Assembly (NCBI GenBank): GCA_018971305.1
Contig: JAGXBC010000004.1
Coordinates: 4,028 to 68,027 of the forward strand
DNA length: 64,000 bases
From: Patescibacteria group bacterium
Lineage (GTDB): Bacteria; Patescibacteriota; Minisyncoccia; UBA6257; 2-01-FULL-56-20
Reading direction: 5' to 3'
Made by a program: the position numbers and the translations under genes. The notes under the pieces are model-generated. The model did not search any database and had not been told where the DNA came from. It worked only from the letters and a program-made list of their open reading frames with translations. Positions 53,362 through 63,712 of this stretch are shown here, piece by piece (positions within the stretch are counted from its first letter, which is position 1; each line of letters opens with the position of its first letter).

Positions 53362-55482
53362 TTATAACTTTTCCCTCCGCAGCAAAACGGCGTTCACGGC
53401 AACGATAACCGTACTCAAAGACATGAACACGGCCGCGAGCGCGGGCTCAAGCAAGATTCCGCGGGAGGCAAGAACTCCGGCGGCCAAAGGCAGGGCAACA
53501 ACGTTATAGCCGGTTGCCCAAAATAAATTCTGTACCATTTTGTTGTATGTAAGTCGGGAGAGTTTGATGATTTTCAGAATATCGCGCGGGTCGTTCTTCA
53601 CTAAAATTATTCCGGCGGATTCTATCGCAATGTTAGTTCCCGCGCCGATGGCAATTCCCAAATCTGCCTGAGTAAGTGCCGGAGCGTCGTTAATACCATC
53701 GCCAACCATAGCGACCTTCAATCCCCGCTTCTGCAATTCTTTTACTTTGGATGCTTTTTCGCCCGGCAGAACTTTTGCGAAATATTCGTCTATACCAAGT
53801 TTTTCGGCAACCCAGCTGGCTACATCTTCGGAATCGCCGGTTATCATCGCCGTTCTTACACCGGCTTTCTTTAGTTTCACTATCGCTTCGCGTGATTCTT
53901 CGCGGATTATATCAGCCAAAGCAATGGCTCCGAGTAATACTCCGCCGGAGACGATATAAATTATTGTCTTTCCTTCTTTAGACAATACGGCGAGCCGAGA
54001 TTTCATTTTATCGGCAACCGCGCCGCTCAATATAGCTTCACCACCAACTAAAACATCCTGGCCATCAACCAATCCTCTAACACCTTTGCCGGGAATGCGC
54101 TCAAAATTTTTTACTTCAGCAATTTTGAGATCGCGCTTTTTCGCTTCCGCAACTATCGCCCGCGAAACGAAGTGCTCTGAATTTGAATCAACCGCAGCGG
54201 CCAGCCGCAAAACTTCCCCATCGTTCTCGGCAATAATATCTGTTACTCCATATTCGCCTTTAGTCAGGGTTCCCGTCTTATCAAAAAGAACAATATTTAT
54301 TTTCCTTGCTCGCTCCAACGAGGCTCGCTGCCTGATAAGAAATCCATTACGAGCCGCCATCGTAGTGGAGATCGCGGCAACAAGTGGTATGGCGAGTCCC
54401 AAGGCGTGCGGGCAAGCTATCACGAGAACAGCGACTAGCCGCGTTAAAGCGAAAGAGATTCCGGCCGAAGCAAGGAGCCAGGAAACCAAAGTTATAATTC
54501 CCGACGCCACGGCGATTATGGTGAGATAGAATGCCGCCTTGTCCGACAAAATCTGCAATCGCGATTTGGAGGCCTGCGCTTCTTTTATAAGCCGCATCAC
54601 TCCGGCCAAAAAAGTTTTCTCGCCGATTTTTGCCACGCGAATTTTTAGCGAGCCGTCACCGTTCGTCGTTCCGGCTATTACCTCGGCGCCCGTATTCTTT
54701 ATAACCGGCTTTGATTCGCCGGTGATAATTGCTTCGTTTACGTCCGACTTGCCGTCCGCCACAATCCCGTCCGCGGGAATTTTCCCTCCGGGCCGTACGA
54801 ATACCAAATCACCCTCTTTTAATTCCATGAGCGGAACGGTTTCACTCTTATCGCCGCGAATCACCTCGGCTACGTCCGGTAAAAGTTTGGATAATTCCTT
54901 AAGAGCTCCCTGGGCACCCTGGACAGATTTCATTTCTATCCAATGTCCCAAAAGCATCACAGCGATAAGCGTTGTCAGCTCCAAAAAAAGAGTCTGCGTG
55001 CCACCCGCCAAAACCGATATGGCGCTGTAAACGTAGGCGGTCGTAATGGCCAAGGCGATGAGCGTCATCATCCCTGGCAATTTGGCCTTAAGTTCACGCC
55101 AGGCACTTGCGATAAAAACCCAGCCGCAATAGAAAAATACTATTGAGCCGATCAATAACTGGAGATAGCGCGAACCGGGAAATTGCGGCGCTTGCCAGTT
55201 GAAAAACGTCTGCGGTAAATCCGAATAAACCAGAACCGGAACGGTTAAAACCAAACTCACCAAGAATTTTTTTAGAAAATCCTGGGTATGATGCCCGGCA
55301 TGTTTGTTGAAATCATCTTTGCTTCCTTCATGTTCGGAATGCTTGCTGTGTTCTATACTGCGTGCCTCGTGTTTTACGGCCACGAGCGCCATCCCGCAAT
55401 CCGGACACATACCGGGAATTTCCTGTTTAATCTCCGGATGCATAGGGCAGGTATAAATTTTGTTAACTAATTCCTGGTTCAT
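53362..55482 (-). CDS. copB: Copper-translocating P1B-type ATPase (CopB-like, CPH motif) with an N-terminal CxxC...CxxC metal-binding domain and a His-rich stretch.
   Basis: YTCPMHPE...CPDCGM, His-rich HEARSIEHSKHSEHEG..HAGHH, TGES, CPH, DKTGTLT, GDGINDAPAL. Confidence 0.9.
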   Translation of the reverse strand: MNQELVNKIYTCPMHPEIKQEIPGMCPDCGMALVAVKHEARSIEHSKHSEHEGSKDDFNKHAGHHTQDFLKKFLVSLVLTVPVLVYSDLPQTFFNWQAPQFPGSRYLQLLIGSIVFFYCGWVFIASAWRELKAKLPGMMTLIALAITTAYVYSAISVLAGGTQTLFLELTTLIAVMLLGHWIEMKSVQGAQGALKELSKLLPDVAEVIRGDKSETVPLMELKEGDLVFVRPGGKIPADGIVADGKSDVNEAIITGESKPVIKNTGAEVIAGTTNGDGSLKIRVAKIGEKTFLAGVMRLIKEAQASKSRLQILSDKAAFYLTIIAVASGIITLVSWLLASAGISFALTRLVAVLVIACPHALGLAIPLVAAISTTMAARNGFLIRQRASLERARKINIVLFDKTGTLTKGEYGVTDIIAENDGEVLRLAAAVDSNSEHFVSRAIVAEAKKRDLKIAEVKNFERIPGKGVRGLVDGQDVLVGGEAILSGAVADKMKSRLAVLSKEGKTIIYIVSGGVLLGAIALADIIREESREAIVKLKKAGVRTAMITGDSEDVASWVAEKLGIDEYFAKVLPGEKASKVKELQKRGLKVAMVGDGINDAPALTQADLGIAIGAGTNIAIESAGIILVKNDPRDILKIIKLSRLTYNKMVQNLFWATGYNVVALPLAAGVLASRGILLEPALAAVFMSLSTVIVAVNAVLLRREKL

Positions 55483-55654
55483 TGTTGTTTAGAAAAATTA
55501 TTTTCAATTGCATGGCTTATAACCTCAAGATTGCAACTTTTGTGCTCCCGGCACCACGCCTCGCATTTTTCCGCCCATTCTTTATCTTTATACGCGGAAC
55601 CGCATTCGGAGCAGATAAACGTTTGCGGCGATGTCTGTTTATTGTTTTGCTTCA
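55479..55654 (-). CDS. Small Cys-rich ORF (59 aa) not in the ORF track. Its stop overlaps the copB ATG (ATGA). Candidate metal-binding chaperone or regulator.
   Basis: Hand translation: MKQNNKQTSPQTFICSECGSAYKDKEWAEKCEAWCREHKSCNLEVISHAIENNFSKQQ. Open for 59 codons. ATGA overlap with copB. Confidence 0.4.
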
Positions 55655-56133
55655 TAGCTTATGACGATCTGGTCCTTGTCGCGCAAGATGGTGTTTTCGT
55701 AGGTATCCACCTGTGATCCGTTGACCATCACTTTAATTATATGACTATCATCAATGGTATTGTCGAGAATCTGGTTTTGGTTGAAGGTTTTATCCCACAC
55801 CGCGAAGAAGTCGGCGAGGGTGAAATCCCTTGCTTCCGGCGATTCTACGTGAAGCGTGCCGCTCGTGTCATGCGTGTGAATCGGATGCATACACGCGAGG
55901 GTGATGCCGATATTCGCGGGGATGTCCTGCTGCTGGCCATTGATGAGGATTTGGAGATGCGGATGGATGTGGAATGTCGTAAACATATCCGTCGTACAGC
56001 TTAGCGCGAGTTGCCGGTTCGTTTGGTTGGAGACGGAATGGTTGCCCCACCAAAAAAGCCCAGCGACGAGCGCAATCGTGATTCCAGTAATCCACCACCC
56101 CGTGTATGATTTTTTGTAAGAATATTTGCTCAT
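55639..56133 (-). CDS. His-rich exported protein (TM anchor) upstream of copB. Candidate periplasmic copper-binding protein. Track ORF to 56211; Met27 start preferred.
   Basis: FHIHPHLQ...CMHPIHTHDTSGTLHVE His/Cys cluster. N-terminal TM. Confidence 0.45.
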   Translation of the reverse strand: MSKYSYKKSYTGWWITGITIALVAGLFWWGNHSVSNQTNRQLALSCTTDMFTTFHIHPHLQILINGQQQDIPANIGITLACMHPIHTHDTSGTLHVESPEARDFTLADFFAVWDKTFNQNQILDNTIDDSHIIKVMVNGSQVDTYENTILRDKDQIVISYEAKQ

Positions 56134-56143
56134 GTTTTTAGTG

Positions 56144-56827
56144 TTAGCCGCCGCAGATGTCCGAAGCATCCCAGAAAGCGGCAATTTGCTGGGCGTTGAA
56201 TATTCCATCAATGATCATCTTTTTCGCAATGCCCTCATCCACGAAGTAATGCCAGCACTTGCAGCAACACGGCTTTTCTTTTGAGATCGCATATGCCTGA
56301 TTGTAGATTGCCTGCTGTGCCGGAGTAAGCTTCGTGGCATTGTCGTAATCGATCCATTGTTTTGCCATCGCGATTGGCGTGTGCATCGGATCAAGCGGGA
56401 TGTTCGGCATGCTCTTATACGCTTGGAGTTTTTGGAGGTTCGCGTGGCGCTCGACCGTATCCATAAGCGCCGAACAGCATTGGCCACCCAAGTATTTCCC
56501 AGTGGTGTTTGGGAGCGTTCCTCCCGCAGCAACGCAGCTTCCCTCGTAAGTTTGAGAGCCCGAAGCAAGTGCGTCGAGATTCGCACCACAGGTGATGATT
56601 TGGGAATCGAGATCAAGAAGTTCCGGATTAACGTCTTTTGTAAGATTCTGGCTTTGCTTCAGAAAATCATTCTTTCCCGCTTGCGTAGGAATTTGAGTGA
56701 GTTCTGTCGCAAGTTTTGCGGCGAGAGTGGTATCCGTCCCCGCGTTATTTTTTGAGAAAGAAAAATACAAAGCGCCGCCTACGAGCAGGAGTGCCACCGC
56801 GATTGAGATTTTTACATTTTTGTTCAT
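56144..56827 (-). CDS. Secreted Cys-rich hypothetical protein. Track ORF to 56950; likely start at Met42 with a signal peptide.
   Basis: Signal peptide MNKNVKISIAVALLLVGG. Cys clusters GGQCCSAL and PCCCKCWHY. Confidence 0.45.
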   Translation of the reverse strand: MNKNVKISIAVALLLVGGALYFSFSKNNAGTDTTLAAKLATELTQIPTQAGKNDFLKQSQNLTKDVNPELLDLDSQIITCGANLDALASGSQTYEGSCVAAGGTLPNTTGKYLGGQCCSALMDTVERHANLQKLQAYKSMPNIPLDPMHTPIAMAKQWIDYDNATKLTPAQQAIYNQAYAISKEKPCCCKCWHYFVDEGIAKKMIIDGIFNAQQIAAFWDASDICGG

Positions 56828-56966
56828 CCCGATTAGAGATAGGAAACGCAGGCGTTTCCGTATCTGATTATGTCTTTGCATAAGATATTCAATTAATTTC
56901 TTTTTATGTTTCCCGCTAGGATACCGTTGGGCATCTCTAACGGGATTCATGGTTTTATTTTTTTAT

Positions 56967-57533
56967 TTAAGGCAGGCAAACCGGCGACGCCGAGATTCTT
57001 TTCGCCACAAAGTAAATTGAAGATGCGAGAAGAATTACGCTCAGCAAGCCGAATTCGCCGCCCTTAAGTGGCAGGAGCGCTATTGCTCCTCCCGCGCCGA
57101 CCAATGAGAGAATGCTTGTTGCGAGAAACGATCCGCATGCGGCGCAGCCGACGCCGAACATTCCGCTAATCACGCCACCTACGCTTGCAGTCATTTCTCT
57201 CTGCCCCAGCGCGAGGTTTCTCTTCGCGAGGTAGACGATCATCGCAAGATCGATGCCAAAGAGAATCGCTATCGCGATAGTGTATGAAGCCGAGAATACG
57301 CTGAAGTTTGTCGTGATGCTCTCAAAAAGTCCCGCGAGAAGTTGCGCTTTTATGCCAAGAGGCACGCTCCAATTTCCAAGGGTGTTTGCGATCAAGGAGA
57401 AATTTGGCAGCCATACCACAAAGGTAAAAGCTGCGAGTCCTCCAACGAGCGCGATCACGACGTAAGAGAATTTTCCGAACACTTCTCGGAGAGCGCGGAT
57501 CAGCATTTTATTTCGTCGCAAGCGCGGCATCAA
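56967..57533 (-). CDS. Hypothetical integral membrane protein (about 5 TM) with GCAACG in a TM segment.
   Basis: Hydrophobicity. GVGCAACGSFL. Overlaps the dsbA 3' end, so likely an operon. Confidence 0.45.
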   Translation of the reverse strand: MMPRLRRNKMLIRALREVFGKFSYVVIALVGGLAAFTFVVWLPNFSLIANTLGNWSVPLGIKAQLLAGLFESITTNFSVFSASYTIAIAILFGIDLAMIVYLAKRNLALGQREMTASVGGVISGMFGVGCAACGSFLATSILSLVGAGGAIALLPLKGGEFGLLSVILLASSIYFVAKRISASPVCLP

Positions 57534-58266
57534 TCGCCGCCTTGAAGGCAGAGTATGGCTGTGCGCCTTGCACCATCTGGCCGTTCACGTAACTCGTCGG
57601 GGTGGAATTCACGCCGATTGCCTGGGCCGCCGCCGTGTCTTTTTTCACCTGATCGTCATATTTGTTGCTGTCGATGCAGGAAGTGAATGCGTTCATGTCG
57701 AGCCCAACATTTCCCGCGAGTTTCAGGAACTCGTTTCTACTGAAGAATCCGTCGTTTTCACCGTTCGCGGCATCTTTCACCTTTGCACCGTAGAGCGCAT
57801 CGTGGTATTCCCAGAACTTCGACTGGTATTTCGCGCATTCCGCTGCCGCTCCGGCGTTCGTCGATTCAGCGCCCAAGAACTGGAAATTCCGATAGACCAT
57901 TTTCACTTTGCCGGTTTTAATATAATCGGCGCGAAGCGACGGTTCTACTTGGCTGAAAAACCTGCCGCAAAACGGACATTGATAATCGCCGTACTCGACG
58001 AACGTTACGGGCGCGTTTACATCACCCAAGACAGCATCGCTACCGTTGATCTTGAGCGCTTCTGCAAGATTGGCGCTGGGCGCGGCGGTTTGGGTGTTTC
58101 CGGCCGCCTGCGGAATTTTAGTGTCCGATTTCTTTCCTACAGAATAGACAACTGCTCCGGCTATGAGCACTCCGGCAATGAGAATGGAGGCGGGCATGAG
58201 AAAATTATTCGATGTTTGTGTTTTTTCTATTTGCGGAATTTCTTCCGGTTTATTTTCATGACGCAT
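57508..58266 (-). CDS. dsbA: DsbA family thiol:disulfide interchange protein, membrane-anchored.
   Basis: N-terminal TM. Thioredoxin fold FVEYGDYQCPFCGRF (CPFC). Confidence 0.8.
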   Translation of the reverse strand: MRHENKPEEIPQIEKTQTSNNFLMPASILIAGVLIAGAVVYSVGKKSDTKIPQAAGNTQTAAPSANLAEALKINGSDAVLGDVNAPVTFVEYGDYQCPFCGRFFSQVEPSLRADYIKTGKVKMVYRNFQFLGAESTNAGAAAECAKYQSKFWEYHDALYGAKVKDAANGENDGFFSRNEFLKLAGNVGLDMNAFTSCIDSNKYDDQVKKDTAAAQAIGVNSTPTSYVNGQMVQGAQPYSAFKAAIDAALATK

Positions 58267-58354
58267 AGTTTTATAAAATTATTTTATTATCAGATTAACA
58301 AAAAACACACGCCCCGTGGTTTGCGCGTGTTTGTGGGCGCAAATCGGGCGTTAT

Positions 58355-58765
58355 TTAAACGTTCAAGGAGTAATCGTAAATTTTAGCGTGGAGAATGCCC
58401 CTGCTCAGCGCGAAGAGAATGGGATTAAAAATCCGGTTAATAAAGATCTGATTTTTGTTGTACAAGAAAACTTTTTCCTCACGGTGATCATCCCTATCAA
58501 GTTTTCTGGAAACATTAGAAAACAAGAAGGTGAATAACAAAAGCAGTGGGATGACATTTGGTATAACGGCAGCAGAAAGCAATCCCCATGCACTAAGATG
58601 TTCCATAATATTCATGCGACAAATCGAAGCGGTGCCGTTCATTAATGGGCAAGAAGCCATATTGCCATGACTATCCATATTCATCGAAACAGTCAAACCG
58701 AATACTGCCATAGCTGTAAACAGAATGAAGATTACTAAAGTAAGCTTTGTATTCAAAATAGGCAT
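58355..58765 (-). CDS. 2-TM membrane protein with a Met/His-rich loop carrying a Cys pair. Paralog of 61289..61690.
   Basis: MDSHGNMASCPLMNGTASICRMNIMEH between TM1 and TM2. Same architecture as 61289..61690. Confidence 0.5.
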   Translation of the reverse strand: MPILNTKLTLVIFILFTAMAVFGLTVSMNMDSHGNMASCPLMNGTASICRMNIMEHLSAWGLLSAAVIPNVIPLLLLFTFLFSNVSRKLDRDDHREEKVFLYNKNQIFINRIFNPILFALSRGILHAKIYDYSLNV

Positions 58766-58809
58766 AGTTCTATTTTAGCACCGAAGATAAAGTTTCTCAA
58801 TTTCTCTAT

Positions 58810-59214
58810 TCACCAGATCTTCACGCGCTCCTGCGGCTCGCGCCATAACTTGTCTCCCGGCTTACAGTCGCTCACTTGCGCCAATTTTTCTAAGCTTTGT
58901 TCACCAACAAGCTTGGTGCCATCGACCAAAATCCACGTCGGAGTGCCCTCAACTCCGGCATCAGTGCATTTCTGCGGCTCGTCCGCGCATTCCACATAGG
59001 GAACGTACTTGAACGAATCACCGAATTCGGCTTTTTGGCTTTGACAGTGCGAACACCAATATGCTCCGTACATCGTCACATTTTTCTGTGCCAGACATTT
59101 GGCGAAGTCGTCCAGATTCTTAGTTGCTCCTTCGCGCGGATAGAATTCTAAGAACGCCGCTACCACAATTATCGCGACAACAATAATTACGATTATTTTA
59201 TGATTTTTTTTCAT
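58810..59214 (-). CDS. Membrane-anchored thioredoxin-like protein of the type fused to bacterial VKOR (WCxHC). Track ORF to 59364; start at Met51. The C-terminal 17 aa match the M13 peptidase C-terminus.
   Basis: N-terminal TM. TMYGAYWCSHCQSQKAEFG...GTPTW (VKOR-associated Trx-like signature). Tail KPGDKLWREPQERVKIW. Confidence 0.7.
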   Translation of the reverse strand: MKKNHKIIVIIVVAIIVVAAFLEFYPREGATKNLDDFAKCLAQKNVTMYGAYWCSHCQSQKAEFGDSFKYVPYVECADEPQKCTDAGVEGTPTWILVDGTKLVGEQSLEKLAQVSDCKPGDKLWREPQERVKIW

Positions 59215-59403
59215 TGATTTTATTCTTATCACCCCTCTCCCTCTACAGCGACTGGCTTGTTTCGTAAGGCAGTTCCCGCAAGCGATAAAAGCTTGGTGTC
59301 CTCCGCCAATTGGCGGAGGACTTTTATTGCCGAGGGTGCAGGCGGTCGTATGCCGCTGGAGCATACGAACCGCCGGTGCCGAGCGAAATATGCCGGTCGC
59401 AAC

Positions 59404-59898
59404 TTATTCATCGCAACAATCAACTAATTTATCCACGATGTCGTTAAGCGACCAAGGCTTATCTTCGGCCGCTATTTCTTTCAGACCATTCGCGGTTATC
59501 AACTTTAAACGCAAGGCCCAAAAGAGAGAATAGATCTTGTAGCCGTAATCAAACGTTTCCTTGGCTTCTTTTGTTTTGCCGTCGGAATGAAGCTTTGTAC
59601 CCACCTCAATGAGCCGCATGGTCGTAGCCAAGAGGTGCTTGGAAACGCACCATGTCTCCCCTTCGTGCTTCGGTATCATCCGGCCAAGCAGATTTTTCCG
59701 AACTTCCCGTACCTCCTTAAGCAAGTCGAAATATTCCGGCTTGCCGGTTTTTTCGGCGCTAAAGTAGAAATGCTCTTCCAGGCTTATCAGGTTCATAACG
59801 GCCACGCTTAAATCTTCTTCTGTAGACAGATCAACAGTGCCCGACTTTTTCATCTCTTCCGCTTTTTTTATCAATTCCTGAAATTTTTTTTCGTCCAT
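59404..59898 (-). CDS. Hypothetical cytoplasmic protein (164 aa) ending CCDE.
   Basis: ORF. No motif. Confidence 0.45.
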   Translation of the reverse strand: MDEKKFQELIKKAEEMKKSGTVDLSTEEDLSVAVMNLISLEEHFYFSAEKTGKPEYFDLLKEVREVRKNLLGRMIPKHEGETWCVSKHLLATTMRLIEVGTKLHSDGKTKEAKETFDYGYKIYSLFWALRLKLITANGLKEIAAEDKPWSLNDIVDKLVDCCDE

Positions 59899-59950
59899 GT
59901 TTTTATAAAGCGAAAATGATAAGGCCTAAAACGACCATTGCCACTCCGCT

Positions 59951-60688
59951 CTAAAAACGCATATTTCCCGTCTCCGACCTTTTCCAATCCTGAACTTTTT
60001 TTAGCAATCCCTGCTCACTCGCGACGAGAAGAATAATCGCCAGCGGCAAAATGAATATCATATTGTAGAGAAACAGATAGCCGAGCCCCGGCAGAAAAGT
60101 CTGCTGGTCATGCAATAATCCGAGAACCATTAGGTACGGCCCGCCCGTACAGGGAAATTCGCAGAGCCCCACAAGGCCACCCAAAAGAAATGCGGTTGGC
60201 ACGGAAGCTTTATTCATAAACTCAGCCATCTTCGCGTGGGCCGCGTGCGGTATCCGTAATTTAATCGGGAAAGCCGGGAAAAATTCGTTGATGAGATTGA
60301 TCCCTCCGAGCGCCATAAGCAAGATAGCTCCAACTTTTGCCATAAAGTGGGGCGTATTGAAGAGATGCAGAGCTTGAAGTATGCCAAGTCCGATAGCGAT
60401 GTATACTAGAAATATTCCAAGGACATACGCCCCGCCTATCTTCAAAATATCTCGTCTTGATTTTCCCAGACTGAACAGAAACGCGATAGTAAGAACGAGG
60501 ATGGAGAATGCACAAGGATTAATGCTGTCGGCCAAAGCAGCGACGAGAAGCACGGGCAGAAACCACTTGCCACTTTGGGAAATCTTCCAGAGAAAGTTCG
60601 CGCTCTGCTGCGAATTGAAGAATACGGCTAAGCCGATAACGGCAACAGCCACGACCACAAGCCAAAACAATCTTTTGTTTGATGTCAT
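59951..60688 (-). CDS. ccdA: CcdA/DsbD-transmembrane-domain family protein (second copy).
   Basis: SINPCAF and LCEFPCTGGPYL conserved Cys motifs. Six TM. Confidence 0.85.
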   Translation of the reverse strand: MTSNKRLFWLVVVAVAVIGLAVFFNSQQSANFLWKISQSGKWFLPVLLVAALADSINPCAFSILVLTIAFLFSLGKSRRDILKIGGAYVLGIFLVYIAIGLGILQALHLFNTPHFMAKVGAILLMALGGINLINEFFPAFPIKLRIPHAAHAKMAEFMNKASVPTAFLLGGLVGLCEFPCTGGPYLMVLGLLHDQQTFLPGLGYLFLYNMIFILPLAIILLVASEQGLLKKVQDWKRSETGNMRF

Positions 60689-60689
60689 G

Positions 60690-61193
60690 TTATGGAGTAA
60701 CTAACGCCTTGAAAGCGACTTGGAATTGACCTTTGTCGGTGTAAACCGTTACTTGCCTTTCTATGGCACCGATACCGGATGGACCATGGGCGGCAGGATC
60801 AAAAATAGTCCGCAAATTCATTTCTCCTCCCACGGGAACAACTTCGTTTATGGACGGAGCAAAACCCATTCCAGCCATTCCGAATGGACCGAATTCCTTG
60901 CCGCCAAAATTCAAGACCGCCTCTGTACACATGCAAGAAGTGTCTGCTCTGTTCACGGTTACAACGGAATCTCCGCTATTCGTGAAGCTGAAATCGTGTT
61001 CCACCTTGCCGTTCGCCATGGAAATAGTCCCGAAATCAAATTCCTGAACCGCCTGGCCGAAAACGGCGCTGGTTTCTCCGAGAAGAGACACCTTGCCGCT
61101 CACCGCAGGCGCATGGCTGCCCCAGAACAAAAGCAATCCGGCAACTACGGCAATTATCGTAACTAAAATAAAAGTTTTTTTGTTTTTAGACAT
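60690..61193 (-). CDS. DUF1573 domain protein, membrane-anchored.
   Basis: N-terminal TM. FDFGTI..G...H.F.F.N.G...VTV......SCMCT resembles the DUF1573 consensus. Start abuts the ccdA stop. Confidence 0.65.
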   Translation of the reverse strand: MSKNKKTFILVTIIAVVAGLLLFWGSHAPAVSGKVSLLGETSAVFGQAVQEFDFGTISMANGKVEHDFSFTNSGDSVVTVNRADTSCMCTEAVLNFGGKEFGPFGMAGMGFAPSINEVVPVGGEMNLRTIFDPAAHGPSGIGAIERQVTVYTDKGQFQVAFKALVTP

Positions 61194-61288
61194 AGTTTAT
61201 GTTTTTTACGAAACCAAAAACAACCCCTTGAGGGTTGTTATCGGCGGCGAAATGCAGCCTGTCGAGTCAGGACTGCAAAAACACCGCC

Positions 61289-61690
61289 TTAGGCGAACGA
61301 GGGGCTATTTTCGTGAAAAGAAAGCCAGCGGATGAGCTGAAGTTTCACCGGAGGAATAAAGTCATAGAATGAAACCCCGGTCAGATGCGGCTTAGTTATA
61401 GGTAAGATTCCTCCGACGACACTATTGAGATCCAGAACAAAATATATTAGTAAAGACAACGCCACGATCATGGACCAGGAAACCAAAACTGCCAAAGAAA
61501 AATTCTTCAGGGCGTTGAAGTGGAAATTTATAAAATCGATCACGCTTGCTCCCAAAGGACACATTGCACCTTCCGAAGTGGAAGCAATACAGCCCATATG
61601 ATTGCTATTCATAAAAGCCACGCCGATAAATCCCAAAACGGCGATACTTATAAAACTTATAGCAATGTATATGGCAAGCGCTTTGTTCAT
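61289..61690 (-). CDS. 2-TM membrane protein with a Met/His-rich Cys-pair loop. Paralog of 58355..58765.
   Basis: NSNHMGCIASTSEGAMCPLGASV loop between TM1 and TM2. Confidence 0.5.
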   Translation of the reverse strand: MNKALAIYIAISFISIAVLGFIGVAFMNSNHMGCIASTSEGAMCPLGASVIDFINFHFNALKNFSLAVLVSWSMIVALSLLIYFVLDLNSVVGGILPITKPHLTGVSFYDFIPPVKLQLIRWLSFHENSPSFA

Positions 61691-61747: not shown

Positions 61748-63712
61748 TCACCAAATCTTTACCCGTTCCTCAGGATCCCGCCAAAGCTTATCCCCGGGAT
61801 TACAATCAAAAGCGTCGTAAAATTCCTGCATATTGGACATCGGTCCGTTCACGCGAAATTCCGAAGGTGAATGAGGGTTGGTCTGCAAGTGCAAGCGGGT
61901 AAGTTCGTCACGGACGTTCCTTTGCTCTGTTATGGCATAACCTATAAAAAATCTCTGCTCGGGAGAAAATCCGTCAATATTCTCTTCCACGGGAGTTTCG
62001 GCGAGTTTTAATTTCAAAGCGTCATAGGCGATAAGTAGTCCGCCGAGATCGGCGATATTTTCTCCCAAAGTCAGCTTGCCGTTAACGTGCATCCCCGGAA
62101 TCGGTTCGTATTCATCAAACTGCCCCGCCAGTTTAGCAGCCTCGGCTTCAAATTTATCTTTGTCTTCTTTCGTCCACCACTCGTTCAGATTTCCACGATT
62201 GTCAAAACGAGAACCTTGGTCGTCAAAGCCGTGCGTCAATTCATGTCCGATAACGCTGCCGATGCCACCGAAATTCACGGCATCGTCGGCGTTCGGGTCA
62301 AAAAACGGAGGCTGGAGAATTGCAGCCGGGAAAACAATATCGTTCAAAGACGCCTGATAATAGGCATTGACCATCTGCGGCGGCATGAACCATTCGTTGC
62401 GATTCACCGGACCACCGACCTCTTTGATTTTTCGGTCAAATTCAAAAACATCCGCGCGTATGACATTCCCCGCAAAAGAATCTGCGTTGATAGAAAGCGC
62501 AGAGTAATCTTTCCAGACATCGGGGTAGCCCAGCTTTTTGGAAACCGCCTGGAGTTTTTCCAGCGCTTTCTTTTTGGTTTTTTCGCTCATCCAGTCAAGT
62601 TTTTCTATGCGCACCGCATAGGCGGAGGCGAGATGCCCAACAAGATCCTTTATTTTCTTTTTCGCGTCCTCGTTGAAGTGGCGCTCCACATATAATTGCC
62701 CGACAAGCTCATCCAAAGCCGAGCTTGTGGCATTAAGCGCGCGCCGCCACAACGGTTTCATCTCGGTCTGCCCGGCGAACGTGCGTCCGTAAAATTCAAA
62801 GTGCCGGCGTTCCATATCTTCACCAAGATAAGAGTCCGTGCCGTTAAGAACGCGCCAACGAAGATATAACTTCAGGTCCTCCAGCGGCGTCTCAGCTAAA
62901 ATGGAATTAATTTCCAAGAGGAACTTCGGCTGACCGAGAAGAAGATATTCTGCCTTTGGATTATTTATTGACGGGAAATATGATGATAGCGGTATTTTCG
63001 GAGCCAATTGAGAGAATTCTTCTAGGGTTACCTTATTATAATTTTTTTCAACATCGCGGAGCTCAACAGGAGTGGAAGACGCCTTCGCCAGAAGCGTTTC
63101 CATATTCATTATCACGGAACATATGTCTTCACCGCTGGATGCCATATTTGCCAACGCTAAAATATCTTTCATGTAAGACAGATAATCCGTGCGAATCTTT
63201 AAGCTATTTTCATCATTATTCAAATAATAATCCCTGTCGGGCAGGCCCAATCCCCCTTGCCAAAAATGCAACGCCATCATTTCGCTATCGCGCTCATCCT
63301 GATCAATAAAAGGAATCCAAAAAGCGTTAATTCCTCGGCGATGAAGAAACCCGATTGCGCCGACAATGTCCTCGCGCTTTTTTATACCATCTATACCCTG
63401 GAAAAGTTCTGTAAGCGGAGACGCACCGGCGCGATTGCGGCTTTCAACGTCCGTAGCGCTCAGATAAAAATCGCGGATTTTCTGCTCTGCGCTTCCGGCA
63501 ACCAAATCTTTTTTCGCCACGACTTCTTCAAAAATATTTTTTAACTGCTGCTCAACGTTAAAACGCAGAACGTCGAACGACCCCCAGCTCGCCTCGTCCG
63601 GCGGTATCGGATTATTTTTCATCCAGCCGCCGTTAACGTAACGGAAAAAATCATCCGTAGGTTTTACGGATTTGTCGAAATTATTTTTGTCTATAGCTGA
63701 TGATAACGGCAT
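61748..63712 (-). CDS. pepO: M13 family metallopeptidase (PepO / neprilysin-like endopeptidase).
   Basis: HELTHGFDDQG (HExxH), ENIADLGG (ENxADxGG), NAYY. C-terminal ...GDKLWRDPEERVKIW. Confidence 0.9.
   Translation of the reverse strand: MPLSSAIDKNNFDKSVKPTDDFFRYVNGGWMKNNPIPPDEASWGSFDVLRFNVEQQLKNIFEEVVAKKDLVAGSAEQKIRDFYLSATDVESRNRAGASPLTELFQGIDGIKKREDIVGAIGFLHRRGINAFWIPFIDQDERDSEMMALHFWQGGLGLPDRDYYLNNDENSLKIRTDYLSYMKDILALANMASSGEDICSVIMNMETLLAKASSTPVELRDVEKNYNKVTLEEFSQLAPKIPLSSYFPSINNPKAEYLLLGQPKFLLEINSILAETPLEDLKLYLRWRVLNGTDSYLGEDMERRHFEFYGRTFAGQTEMKPLWRRALNATSSALDELVGQLYVERHFNEDAKKKIKDLVGHLASAYAVRIEKLDWMSEKTKKKALEKLQAVSKKLGYPDVWKDYSALSINADSFAGNVIRADVFEFDRKIKEVGGPVNRNEWFMPPQMVNAYYQASLNDIVFPAAILQPPFFDPNADDAVNFGGIGSVIGHELTHGFDDQGSRFDNRGNLNEWWTKEDKDKFEAEAAKLAGQFDEYEPIPGMHVNGKLTLGENIADLGGLLIAYDALKLKLAETPVEENIDGFSPEQRFFIGYAITEQRNVRDELTRLHLQTNPHSPSEFRVNGPMSNMQEFYDAFDCNPGDKLWRDPEERVKIW

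Follow-up and report, generated by a model that had tools for sequence, protein, structure and literature searches.

Gene content of the locus

Within the window, by which we mean the whole 64-kb stretch of DNA that was analysed, the gene for a small thioredoxin-like (Trx) protein and the gene for an M13 peptidase end in nearly the same peptide. Both genes are read from the minus strand, as are the two blocks of genes that lie between and beyond them, here referred to as module 1 and module 2. The features concerned are the following.

61748..63712, minus strand: full-length M13 (PepO/neprilysin-type) peptidase, 654 aa, assigned with Pfam
61748..61807, minus strand: native M13 tail, DCNPGDKLWRDPEERVKIW plus TGA, the counterpart of the grafted piece
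59404..61690, minus strand: remainder of module 1, upstream of Trx, delimited with Pfam and the gene order in relatives
61289-61690, minus strand: smallA, module 1
60690-61193, minus strand: DUF1573 protein, module 1, assigned with Pfam
59951-60688, minus strand: CcdA/DsbD-type membrane protein, module 1, assigned with Pfam
59404-59898, minus strand: X164, module 1, ending in VDCCDE
58810..59214, minus strand: chimeric Trx gene, 134 aa, from the ORF and its translation
58810..58869, minus strand: grafted piece, 19 codons Asp116-Trp134 (DCKPGDKLWREPQERVKIW) plus TGA stop, from the codon-by-codon comparison with M13
58772..58800, minus strand: promoter-like site TTGAGA-17-TG-x-TAAAAT (with TG extension) of smallB and module 2, from a consensus scan and the alignment with loci L095 and L098
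53362..58765, minus strand: module 2, from smallB to the Cu-ATPase, also with membrane proteins and proteins of unknown function
58355-58765, minus strand: smallB, at the head of module 2
57508-58266, minus strand: DsbA-like protein, module 2
53362-55482, minus strand: P-type Cu-ATPase with an HMBD domain, module 2

The true start of the Trx gene is the MKKNHK start at 59214, which yields a protein of 134 aa; the 184-aa ORF P0277 of the program-made list is a spurious 5' extension upstream of it. A membrane anchor (residues ~4-23) is followed by a VKOR-type Trx-like domain containing WCSHC (~35-117) and, after Cys117, by the 17-residue M13-derived extension. As read, the protein ends with ...AQVSDCKPGDKLWREPQERVKIW directly before the stop codon (longer stretch ...LAQVSDCKPGDKLWREPQERVKIW). 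In Pfam, the 134-aa protein matches Thioredoxin (E = 5e-5) and Thioredoxin_2 and nothing else; an M13_N domain, an HExxH site and an M13 catalytic domain were looked for in the same way and are absent, and in tblastn the M13 protein matches just its last 19-28 residues. The closest Foldseek match is 3kp8 (46% identity, E = 6e-9, TM-score 0.79 normalised on the target), and the CxxC of a VKOR-type Trx domain is present in WCSHC, with C54 and C57 invariant in the alignment of homologues.

Fold and CxxC are thus common to the window protein and the Trx-like domain of Synechococcus VKOR (3kp8/3kp9). Unlike the latter, however, the window protein has a single N-terminal helix, is not fused to the VKOR membrane domain and carries a foreign tail, and its gene belongs to a CcdA/DUF1573 operon in which the partner is CcdA/DsbD_TM rather than VKOR. 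The protein is predicted to be exported, with a signal anchor. In an AlphaFold (AF2) model, the domain reaches pLDDT values above 90, and tail residues 121-134 of the monomer form a coil with pLDDT 57-71, which is weak evidence as the alignment is uninformative there. Between the X164 and Trx genes, inside the 5' extension of P0277, lies a perfect 24-nt palindrome (GTCCTCCGCCAATTGGCGGAGGAC, 59298-59321) that is terminator-like on both strands.

The M13 peptidase matches PF05649 (E = 1.5e-116) and PF01431 (E = 6e-74), the model of the latter extending to residue 651, and ends as read with ...YDAFDCNPGDKLWRDPEERVKIW before its stop codon (longer stretch ...FYDAFDCNPGDKLWRDPEERVKIW). Solved chains of PepO (9kn2, 9fma) and Zmp1 (3zuk) align with it end to end and finish with ...P-x-x-R-V-x-[IV]-W. 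Hence, the tail is built into the M13 catalytic domain; the motif also lies within the Pfam model and the solved neprilysin chains, as the structural C-terminus of this domain. In peptidase family M13 (neprilysin/PepO/Zmp1), the extreme C-terminus reads GD-x-[LM]-[WY]-R-x-P-x-x-R-[VA]-x-I-W, which recurs in the Trx tail, and the canonical ending GD-x-L-W-R-x-P-x-E-R-V-x-I-W, found in M13 genes of many phyla, is likewise complete there. Furthermore, the M13_N domain begins at residue 18, so that the 17 preceding residues leave no room for a signal peptide. Since the peptidase lacks a signal peptide and Trx has a predicted signal anchor, the two tails should sit in different compartments.

Extent and distribution of the shared tail

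Over 19 codons plus stop (58810-58869 versus 61748-61807), the Trx and resident M13 tails agree at 16/19 residues and 45/60 nt (75%). The similarity spans Asp-Cys to the stop codon, and both the nine preceding residues and the DNA beyond the stop are unrelated. Eleven codons (12 nt) differ synonymously and three non-synonymously (K/N, E/D, Q/E), corresponding to pS ~1.1, i.e. saturation, pN ~0.065 and pN/pS ~0.06. This similarity is far beyond chance: with the M13 protein as tblastn query, the Trx tail is the sole second M13-like match in the 64-kb window (E = 2.3e-7), in which M13 and Trx are the only carriers of the tail. Cys117 (58864-58866) takes the position of the invariant or nearly invariant C-terminal Cys of the Trx family.

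The original prediction, made from the letters of the window, is borne out by these data in several respects: a VKOR-type Trx-like protein, as supported by the Foldseek match, and an M13 peptidase do share a homologous C-terminal tail; their DNA is about 75% identical with mostly synonymous differences (12 synonymous versus 3 non-synonymous); GDxxxRxPEERVxIW is the M13 C-terminus, shared by the solved PepO and Zmp1 structures; and with its synonymous sites saturated, the Trx tail was not copied recently from the end of the resident M13. The count of 15/17 identical residues has to be corrected to 14/17 after Cys, 15/18 with Cys and 16/19 with Asp-Cys.

The locus is 100% identical at the DNA level in the NCBI MAG GCA_028865265.1 and in the Logan assemblies SRR32006849 and SRR32006850, which stem from other runs, and the chimeric protein is present under three NCBI accessions. 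The reading frame continues unbroken across the junction and is intact in all assemblies. No variants of the tail were seen in the population: all assemblies are identical, and the other member of the protein cluster is the same ORF with a longer start.

A search over 5.8 billion proteins returned 229 homologues of Trx, mostly from Patescibacteria, among which the query alone exceeded 90% coverage. The best 120 of these 229 were aligned: 108 end 2-8 residues after Cys117, typically with C-x-L-P, the longer ends are Ser/Thr-rich, and the window protein is the only one to end in Trp, the tail being absent from the 119 others. In the loci of three relatives, no cryptic M13-like tail follows the Trx stop codon in any frame, and tblastn revealed no further M13 remnants near the Trx gene of the window. 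The tail is therefore specific to this species, as far as the aligned homologues reach. The nearest Trx homologue is just 61-64% identical, too distant to date the graft or to serve as an orthologue that would show whether the tail decays or is conserved.

Searches directed at the tail itself encountered the motif, outside the Trx protein, solely on genuine M13 peptidases and on one M13 relic. A degenerate DNA pattern (GDxLWRxPxERVxIW plus stop) occurs at six places in 241 million metagenome records, each time after typical M13 sequence; a strict DNA pattern of the tail had no match in the genome_contigs collection, which evidently does not hold this genome. At the protein level, two tail copies were joined to reach the 40-aa minimum of a query, and this weak search, which collected seven candidates and left P0001 unlisted, gave one match, a 44-aa 'putative endopeptidase'. 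The latter is the relic (locus L004, positions 387-521; JGI 3300042090, Ga0455669_00349877). M13-like sequence is confined to its final 32 codons, which end with ...SNLEEFYNAFDCKKGDKLWREPGERVKIW and a stop codon and are preceded by stop codons and a gene on the opposite strand. At 17/19 residues, its tail, DCKKGDKLWREPGERVKIW, agrees with that of Trx. As in the Trx tail, only the 3' end of M13 remains; unlike the Trx tail, the relic is not fused to a recognisable gene, and it belongs to a different organism (GC 53%, distant similarity elsewhere). Scraps of M13 3' ends thus occur elsewhere, too.

A joint between two gene modules

In three relatives (L005, L007, L008), the block smallA-DUF1573-CcdA-X-Trx has the same order as in the window, with a tail-less Trx as its last gene. 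There, Trx is followed by MOFRL and/or PPDK, either directly or past one variable gene (L007, L008; partly L005); in the window, MOFRL-HisPhos-PPDK come after module 2 instead. Module 2 is found alone in L095-L097, with a 69%-identical smallB as its first gene and a divergent hydrolase gene behind which the block sits; upstream of it, there is no Trx, M13 or tail in these three loci. The promoter-like site of module 2 is conserved before the smallB orthologues and starts no more than 9 nt past the stop codon of the tail, which marks the left edge of module 2. The 57-nt tail is the sole sequence at the Trx/smallB joint that belongs to neither module. By Pfam, the 10 kb to either side contain no integrase or recombinase, and no integrase, transposase or tRNA gene lies near the joint.

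Two other accounts of the tail's position were considered and rejected. A smallB promoter is not hidden inside the tail, as the promoter-like site lies past the stop codon. Both tails precede genes for membrane proteins of ~135 aa, which would fit a duplication of an M13 tail together with the small membrane gene downstream of it; however, smallB has its own 69%-identical orthologues, which head module 2 in L095-L097 and are not preceded by a tail there, smallA and smallB are just distantly homologous (BLASTP E = 0.017; hhalign probability 68%, E = 4.6e-5), and the downstream neighbours of M13 are unrelated in other genomes.

Several observations on the neighbouring genes are worth recording in their own right. 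smallA and smallB are uncharacterised membrane proteins of ~135 aa without a Pfam match, each heading a redox module. The smallA family is large (651 cluster representatives at E <= 1e-3) and is characterised by C-x9-C-P, F-H and a C-terminal W-L-x-x-H-E-N-S-P; the smallB family is small, with SCPL-x-G-x4-C-x-MN-x2-EH and R-G-I-L-H-x-K-I-Y, and smallB-type genes stand in place of smallA before DUF1573 in L099 and L100. X164 (164-176 aa, no Pfam match) lies directly upstream of Trx in every relative examined, at 57-67% identity, has an internal G-E-T-W-C and ends in K-L-V-D-C-C-[DH]-E. X164 could serve CcdA and Trx as a dedicated redox or metal partner. The cassette of smallB, DsbA, membrane proteins and HMBD Cu-ATPase occurs in different contexts in two Patescibacteria (53362-58765 of the window, 10001-15716 of L095) and looks like a portable copper-homeostasis module. 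In L007, genes for a Cu-ATPase, a CsoR-like and a SHOCT protein are placed inside module 1. Directly after DsbA, a gene at 56967-57533 (minus strand) for a multi-pass membrane protein of 179-188 aa with G-V-G-C-A-A-C-G and without a Pfam match is conserved; L095 also has a 196-aa gene at this position. Finally, a promoter-like sequence TTGAGAAAC...TG-x-GCTA-x-AAT with an extended -10 recurs at 58772-58800 of the window, ~9955-9995 of L095, ~325-355 of L098 and, before MOFRL, ~4160-4205 of L008.

Origin and meaning of the tail

We compared the Trx tail with the tails of 80 M13 relatives fetched from species-representative genomes. These match the Trx tail at 4-15/19 residues, the resident M13 at 16/19. 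Members of the clade ending in GD[KG][LM]WR.P.ERV.IW, whose overall identity to the resident M13 is 42-59%, agree with the Trx tail at 13-15/19 residues and 39-45/60 nt; those from Nanopelagicales have 15/19 residues and 44/60 nt, and an M13 at the metagenome locus L014 has 15/19 residues and 45/60 nt. Among the 14 identical residues of the Trx and resident tails for which there is a choice of codon, the same codon is used at three, about what random choice from the genome's usage would give. Their longest exact match is 6 nt, and a repeat finder with 8-nt seeds does not detect the pair. Given the random-like agreement of 3/14 codons and the 44-45/60 nt reached by other M13 genes, the DNA does not tie the tail specifically to the neighbouring M13. 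The putative donor is an M13 of the GD[KG][LM]WR.P.ERV.IW clade and cannot be named. No sequence found in the searches stood out in DNA identity to the Trx tail, and no genome was found with an M13 directly upstream of a smallB-type module, so that the proposed donor arrangement is unobserved.

The original prediction had offered an ancient gene conversion from the neighbouring M13. Such an event is possible; it is not required, as other M13 tails come equally close (44-45/60 nt, 15/19 residues) and the relic even closer at the protein level (17/19), and the 75% identity of the two tails is no higher than that to the M13 genes of unrelated organisms. A foreign origin argued from GC3 was likewise considered, 15 of 18 codons ending in G or C, a level reached in 0.75% of 18-codon windows. 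However, these are the codons that the genome prefers for P, R, Q and E, and the Trx tail fits the genome's usage slightly better than the M13 tail does; since the codons are the preferred ones, GC3 is evidence neither way.

Can conserved residues over diverged DNA be taken as a sign of strong selection, as had been proposed along with a dN/dS check? We simulated a neutrally drifting duplicate of the resident tail, accepting at most three amino-acid changes and no stop codon, and obtained a probability of no more than 8e-4, even when half of the observed synonymous changes were charged to the Trx tail. Neutral drift being rejected, either strong purifying selection has acted inside Trx, or most of the divergence arose while both sequences ended functional M13 genes. 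The inference of strong selection, for which the proposed check has now been run, holds just if the donor was the resident gene and fails for another M13 donor. We favour divergence inside M13 genes, with the scrap reaching Trx later, because the residues kept are those of the M13 fold, the tail sits on the seam, the L004 relic exists and no other protein carries the peptide. Indeed, the Trx tail keeps every residue conserved in the M13 clade (G, D, L, W, R, P, E, R, V, I, W), and such full retention would more readily follow from a brief stay outside M13 than from identical constraints in a foreign fold.

Several other explanations have to be weighed against a rearrangement at the seam. That the arrangement is an assembly chimera, a mis-called ORF or a convergent similarity is hardly credible: nothing but its rarity suggests this, while three assemblies from different runs share identical DNA, three accessions hold the protein, the frame runs continuously through the junction and tblastn finds the tail within the window at the E-value given above. 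Scarcely better founded is a C-terminal sorting, recognition or partner-docking signal common to both proteins, which we regard as very improbable. Sequence identity and proximity in a redox/metal gene cluster speak for it, and nothing more, whereas the M13 catalytic domain ends structurally in this motif according to the Pfam model and the PepO, Zmp1 and neprilysin chains, and the motif is seen elsewhere on M13 proteins only and would have to serve both an M13 without export signal and a membrane-anchored Trx. Known C-terminal sorting signals (sortase LPXTG, PEP-CTERM, GlyGly-CTERM, T9SS CTD) are found on several exported carriers per genome. Here, by contrast, the M13 carrier has no signal peptide, and the tail is hydrophilic (KPGDKLWREPQERVKIW), lacking the hydrophobic or charged features of such signals. 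The survey of the Trx family already contradicts the idea: the search for tailed Trx relatives that accompanied the original prediction ended with 119 aligned homologues without the tail, the very outcome it had linked to a lineage-specific accident, and its suggestion of a shared recognition, sorting or docking peptide is not supported in view of this absence, the M13-only occurrence elsewhere and the differing compartments. Improbable too, if less so, is an island inserted in the M13 3' end, in which module 1 (smallA to Trx) would have been inserted, supplying a replacement M13 end, and the original end would have been displaced to the far side, coming by chance in frame with the element's last gene. 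The model for this is icd/icdC around the cryptic prophage e14 of E. coli K-12, with a displaced 3' gene fragment beside an inserted block (PMC13626634), where, as that account summarises it, the icd copies differ mostly by synonymous or conservative changes and are similar up to the stop codon (PMC13626634; Hill et al. 1989 as cited there). As there, the window has an intact gene together with a short duplicate of that gene's 3' end as direct repeats on the same strand (61748-61807 and 58810-58869), here bracketing a 2.9-kb block from smallA to Trx, with similarity ending at the stop codon and mainly synonymous differences. Unlike e14, however, it has neither an integrase or recombinase within 10 kb nor an identical att core (longest exact match 6 nt, pair missed with 8-nt seeds), its synonymous sites are saturated, and the fragment is no free pseudogene but forms the in-frame end of an unrelated gene. 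Moreover, module 1 adjoins MOFRL/PPDK in relatives, so that module 2 rather looks like the inserted piece.

The most serious alternative is a co-opted, functional tail: the resident M13 3' end would have been copied long ago, by illegitimate recombination or conversion, and kept by purifying selection for a role in the envelope, e.g. partner docking, a stability or degradation tag, or regulation of Trx. We consider this account, including its route and purpose, unlikely. It draws on the low pN/pS (~0.06) with saturated synonymous sites and the rejection of neutral drift from the resident tail, on the resident M13 being the best-matching full-length gene, 2.9 kb away on the same strand, and on codons that fit the genome's usage in a frame intact in all assemblies. 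Yet the argument from selection fails once a different M13 from the same clade is taken as the donor, and the data fit such a donor equally well; no other Trx or non-M13 protein with the tail was found among 5.8 billion proteins or 241 million metagenome records; the residues kept are exactly those that the M13 fold needs, which is odd for a new function; and the predicted structure is a low-confidence coil. In its narrower form, that a 17-residue peptide from a buried, cytoplasmic M13 C-terminus was co-opted and is selectively maintained on an exported VKOR-type Trx, the proposal is more doubtful still. Such a tail might, for example, give the adjacent smallB/DsbA/copper module an arm for docking or regulation. 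If true, a sub-domain gene scrap would have acquired a new role in a minimal CPR genome, of which few cases are documented.

All variants of the reading taken together, we think it rather likely that the tail is an in-frame recombination scar at the module seam. The homology with its exact limits, its restriction to this species, its place at the seam and the synonymous saturation are observed; which events came first, what the donor was and that the tail has no function, we infer as follows. A 57-nt scrap of an M13 3' end with its stop codon would have been left at the joint between the copper/DsbA module (smallB to Cu-ATPase) and the end of the CcdA-Trx module. The break on the Trx side would have fallen at the conserved C-terminal Cys codon, so that the scrap came to be read in frame, replacing the usual 2-8 end residues (C-x-L-P...) with the Cys retained; we read this placement as survivorship, as only joints that keep Cys117 leave a working Trx. 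The synonymous divergence most likely built up while both sequences ended working M13 genes, in which case the donor would be another M13 copy of the same clade, lost since or foreign, that either came with module 2 or sat between Trx and smallB until it was deleted. The 17 extra residues would then be a tolerated, probably disordered appendage on an exported Trx and no signal common with a cytoplasmic peptidase. Besides the unobserved donor arrangement, the want of a close Trx orthologue and the weakness of the structural evidence for the tail, two points count against the scar: the intact M13 2.9 kb upstream on the same strand becomes a coincidence if the donor was foreign, and an intact, in-frame tail with preferred codons is equally expected from long residence under selection.

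The feature is a species-specific chimeric gene end, and the event is of a known kind. As in bacterial chimeric or fusion genes that arise by deletion or illegitimate recombination, unrelated frames are joined in frame at a rearrangement joint, and the upstream protein retains its essential parts in the product, Cys117 among them. Unlike in such fusions, the added piece comprises just 19 codons, is smaller than a domain and stems from a buried C-terminal element of a protease, and no activity has been transferred.

In summary, the evidence points to an ordinary product of genome rearrangement, a chimeric reading frame where two portable gene modules meet, and not to a new C-terminal signal of unrelated redox-island proteins. 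It also calls for caution in the reading of short paired copies, in which a conserved protein over diverged DNA is no proof of selection on both, as the donor may be another orthologue. Should close relatives show a conserved tail, it would count as a genuine, if small, instance of peptide co-option. As it stands, the locus offers a natural example of a gene-end scrap captured in frame, the host protein probably spared because the break preserved its essential Cys, and the tail would pinpoint the edge at which a copper/DsbA cassette was inserted into a CPR genome.
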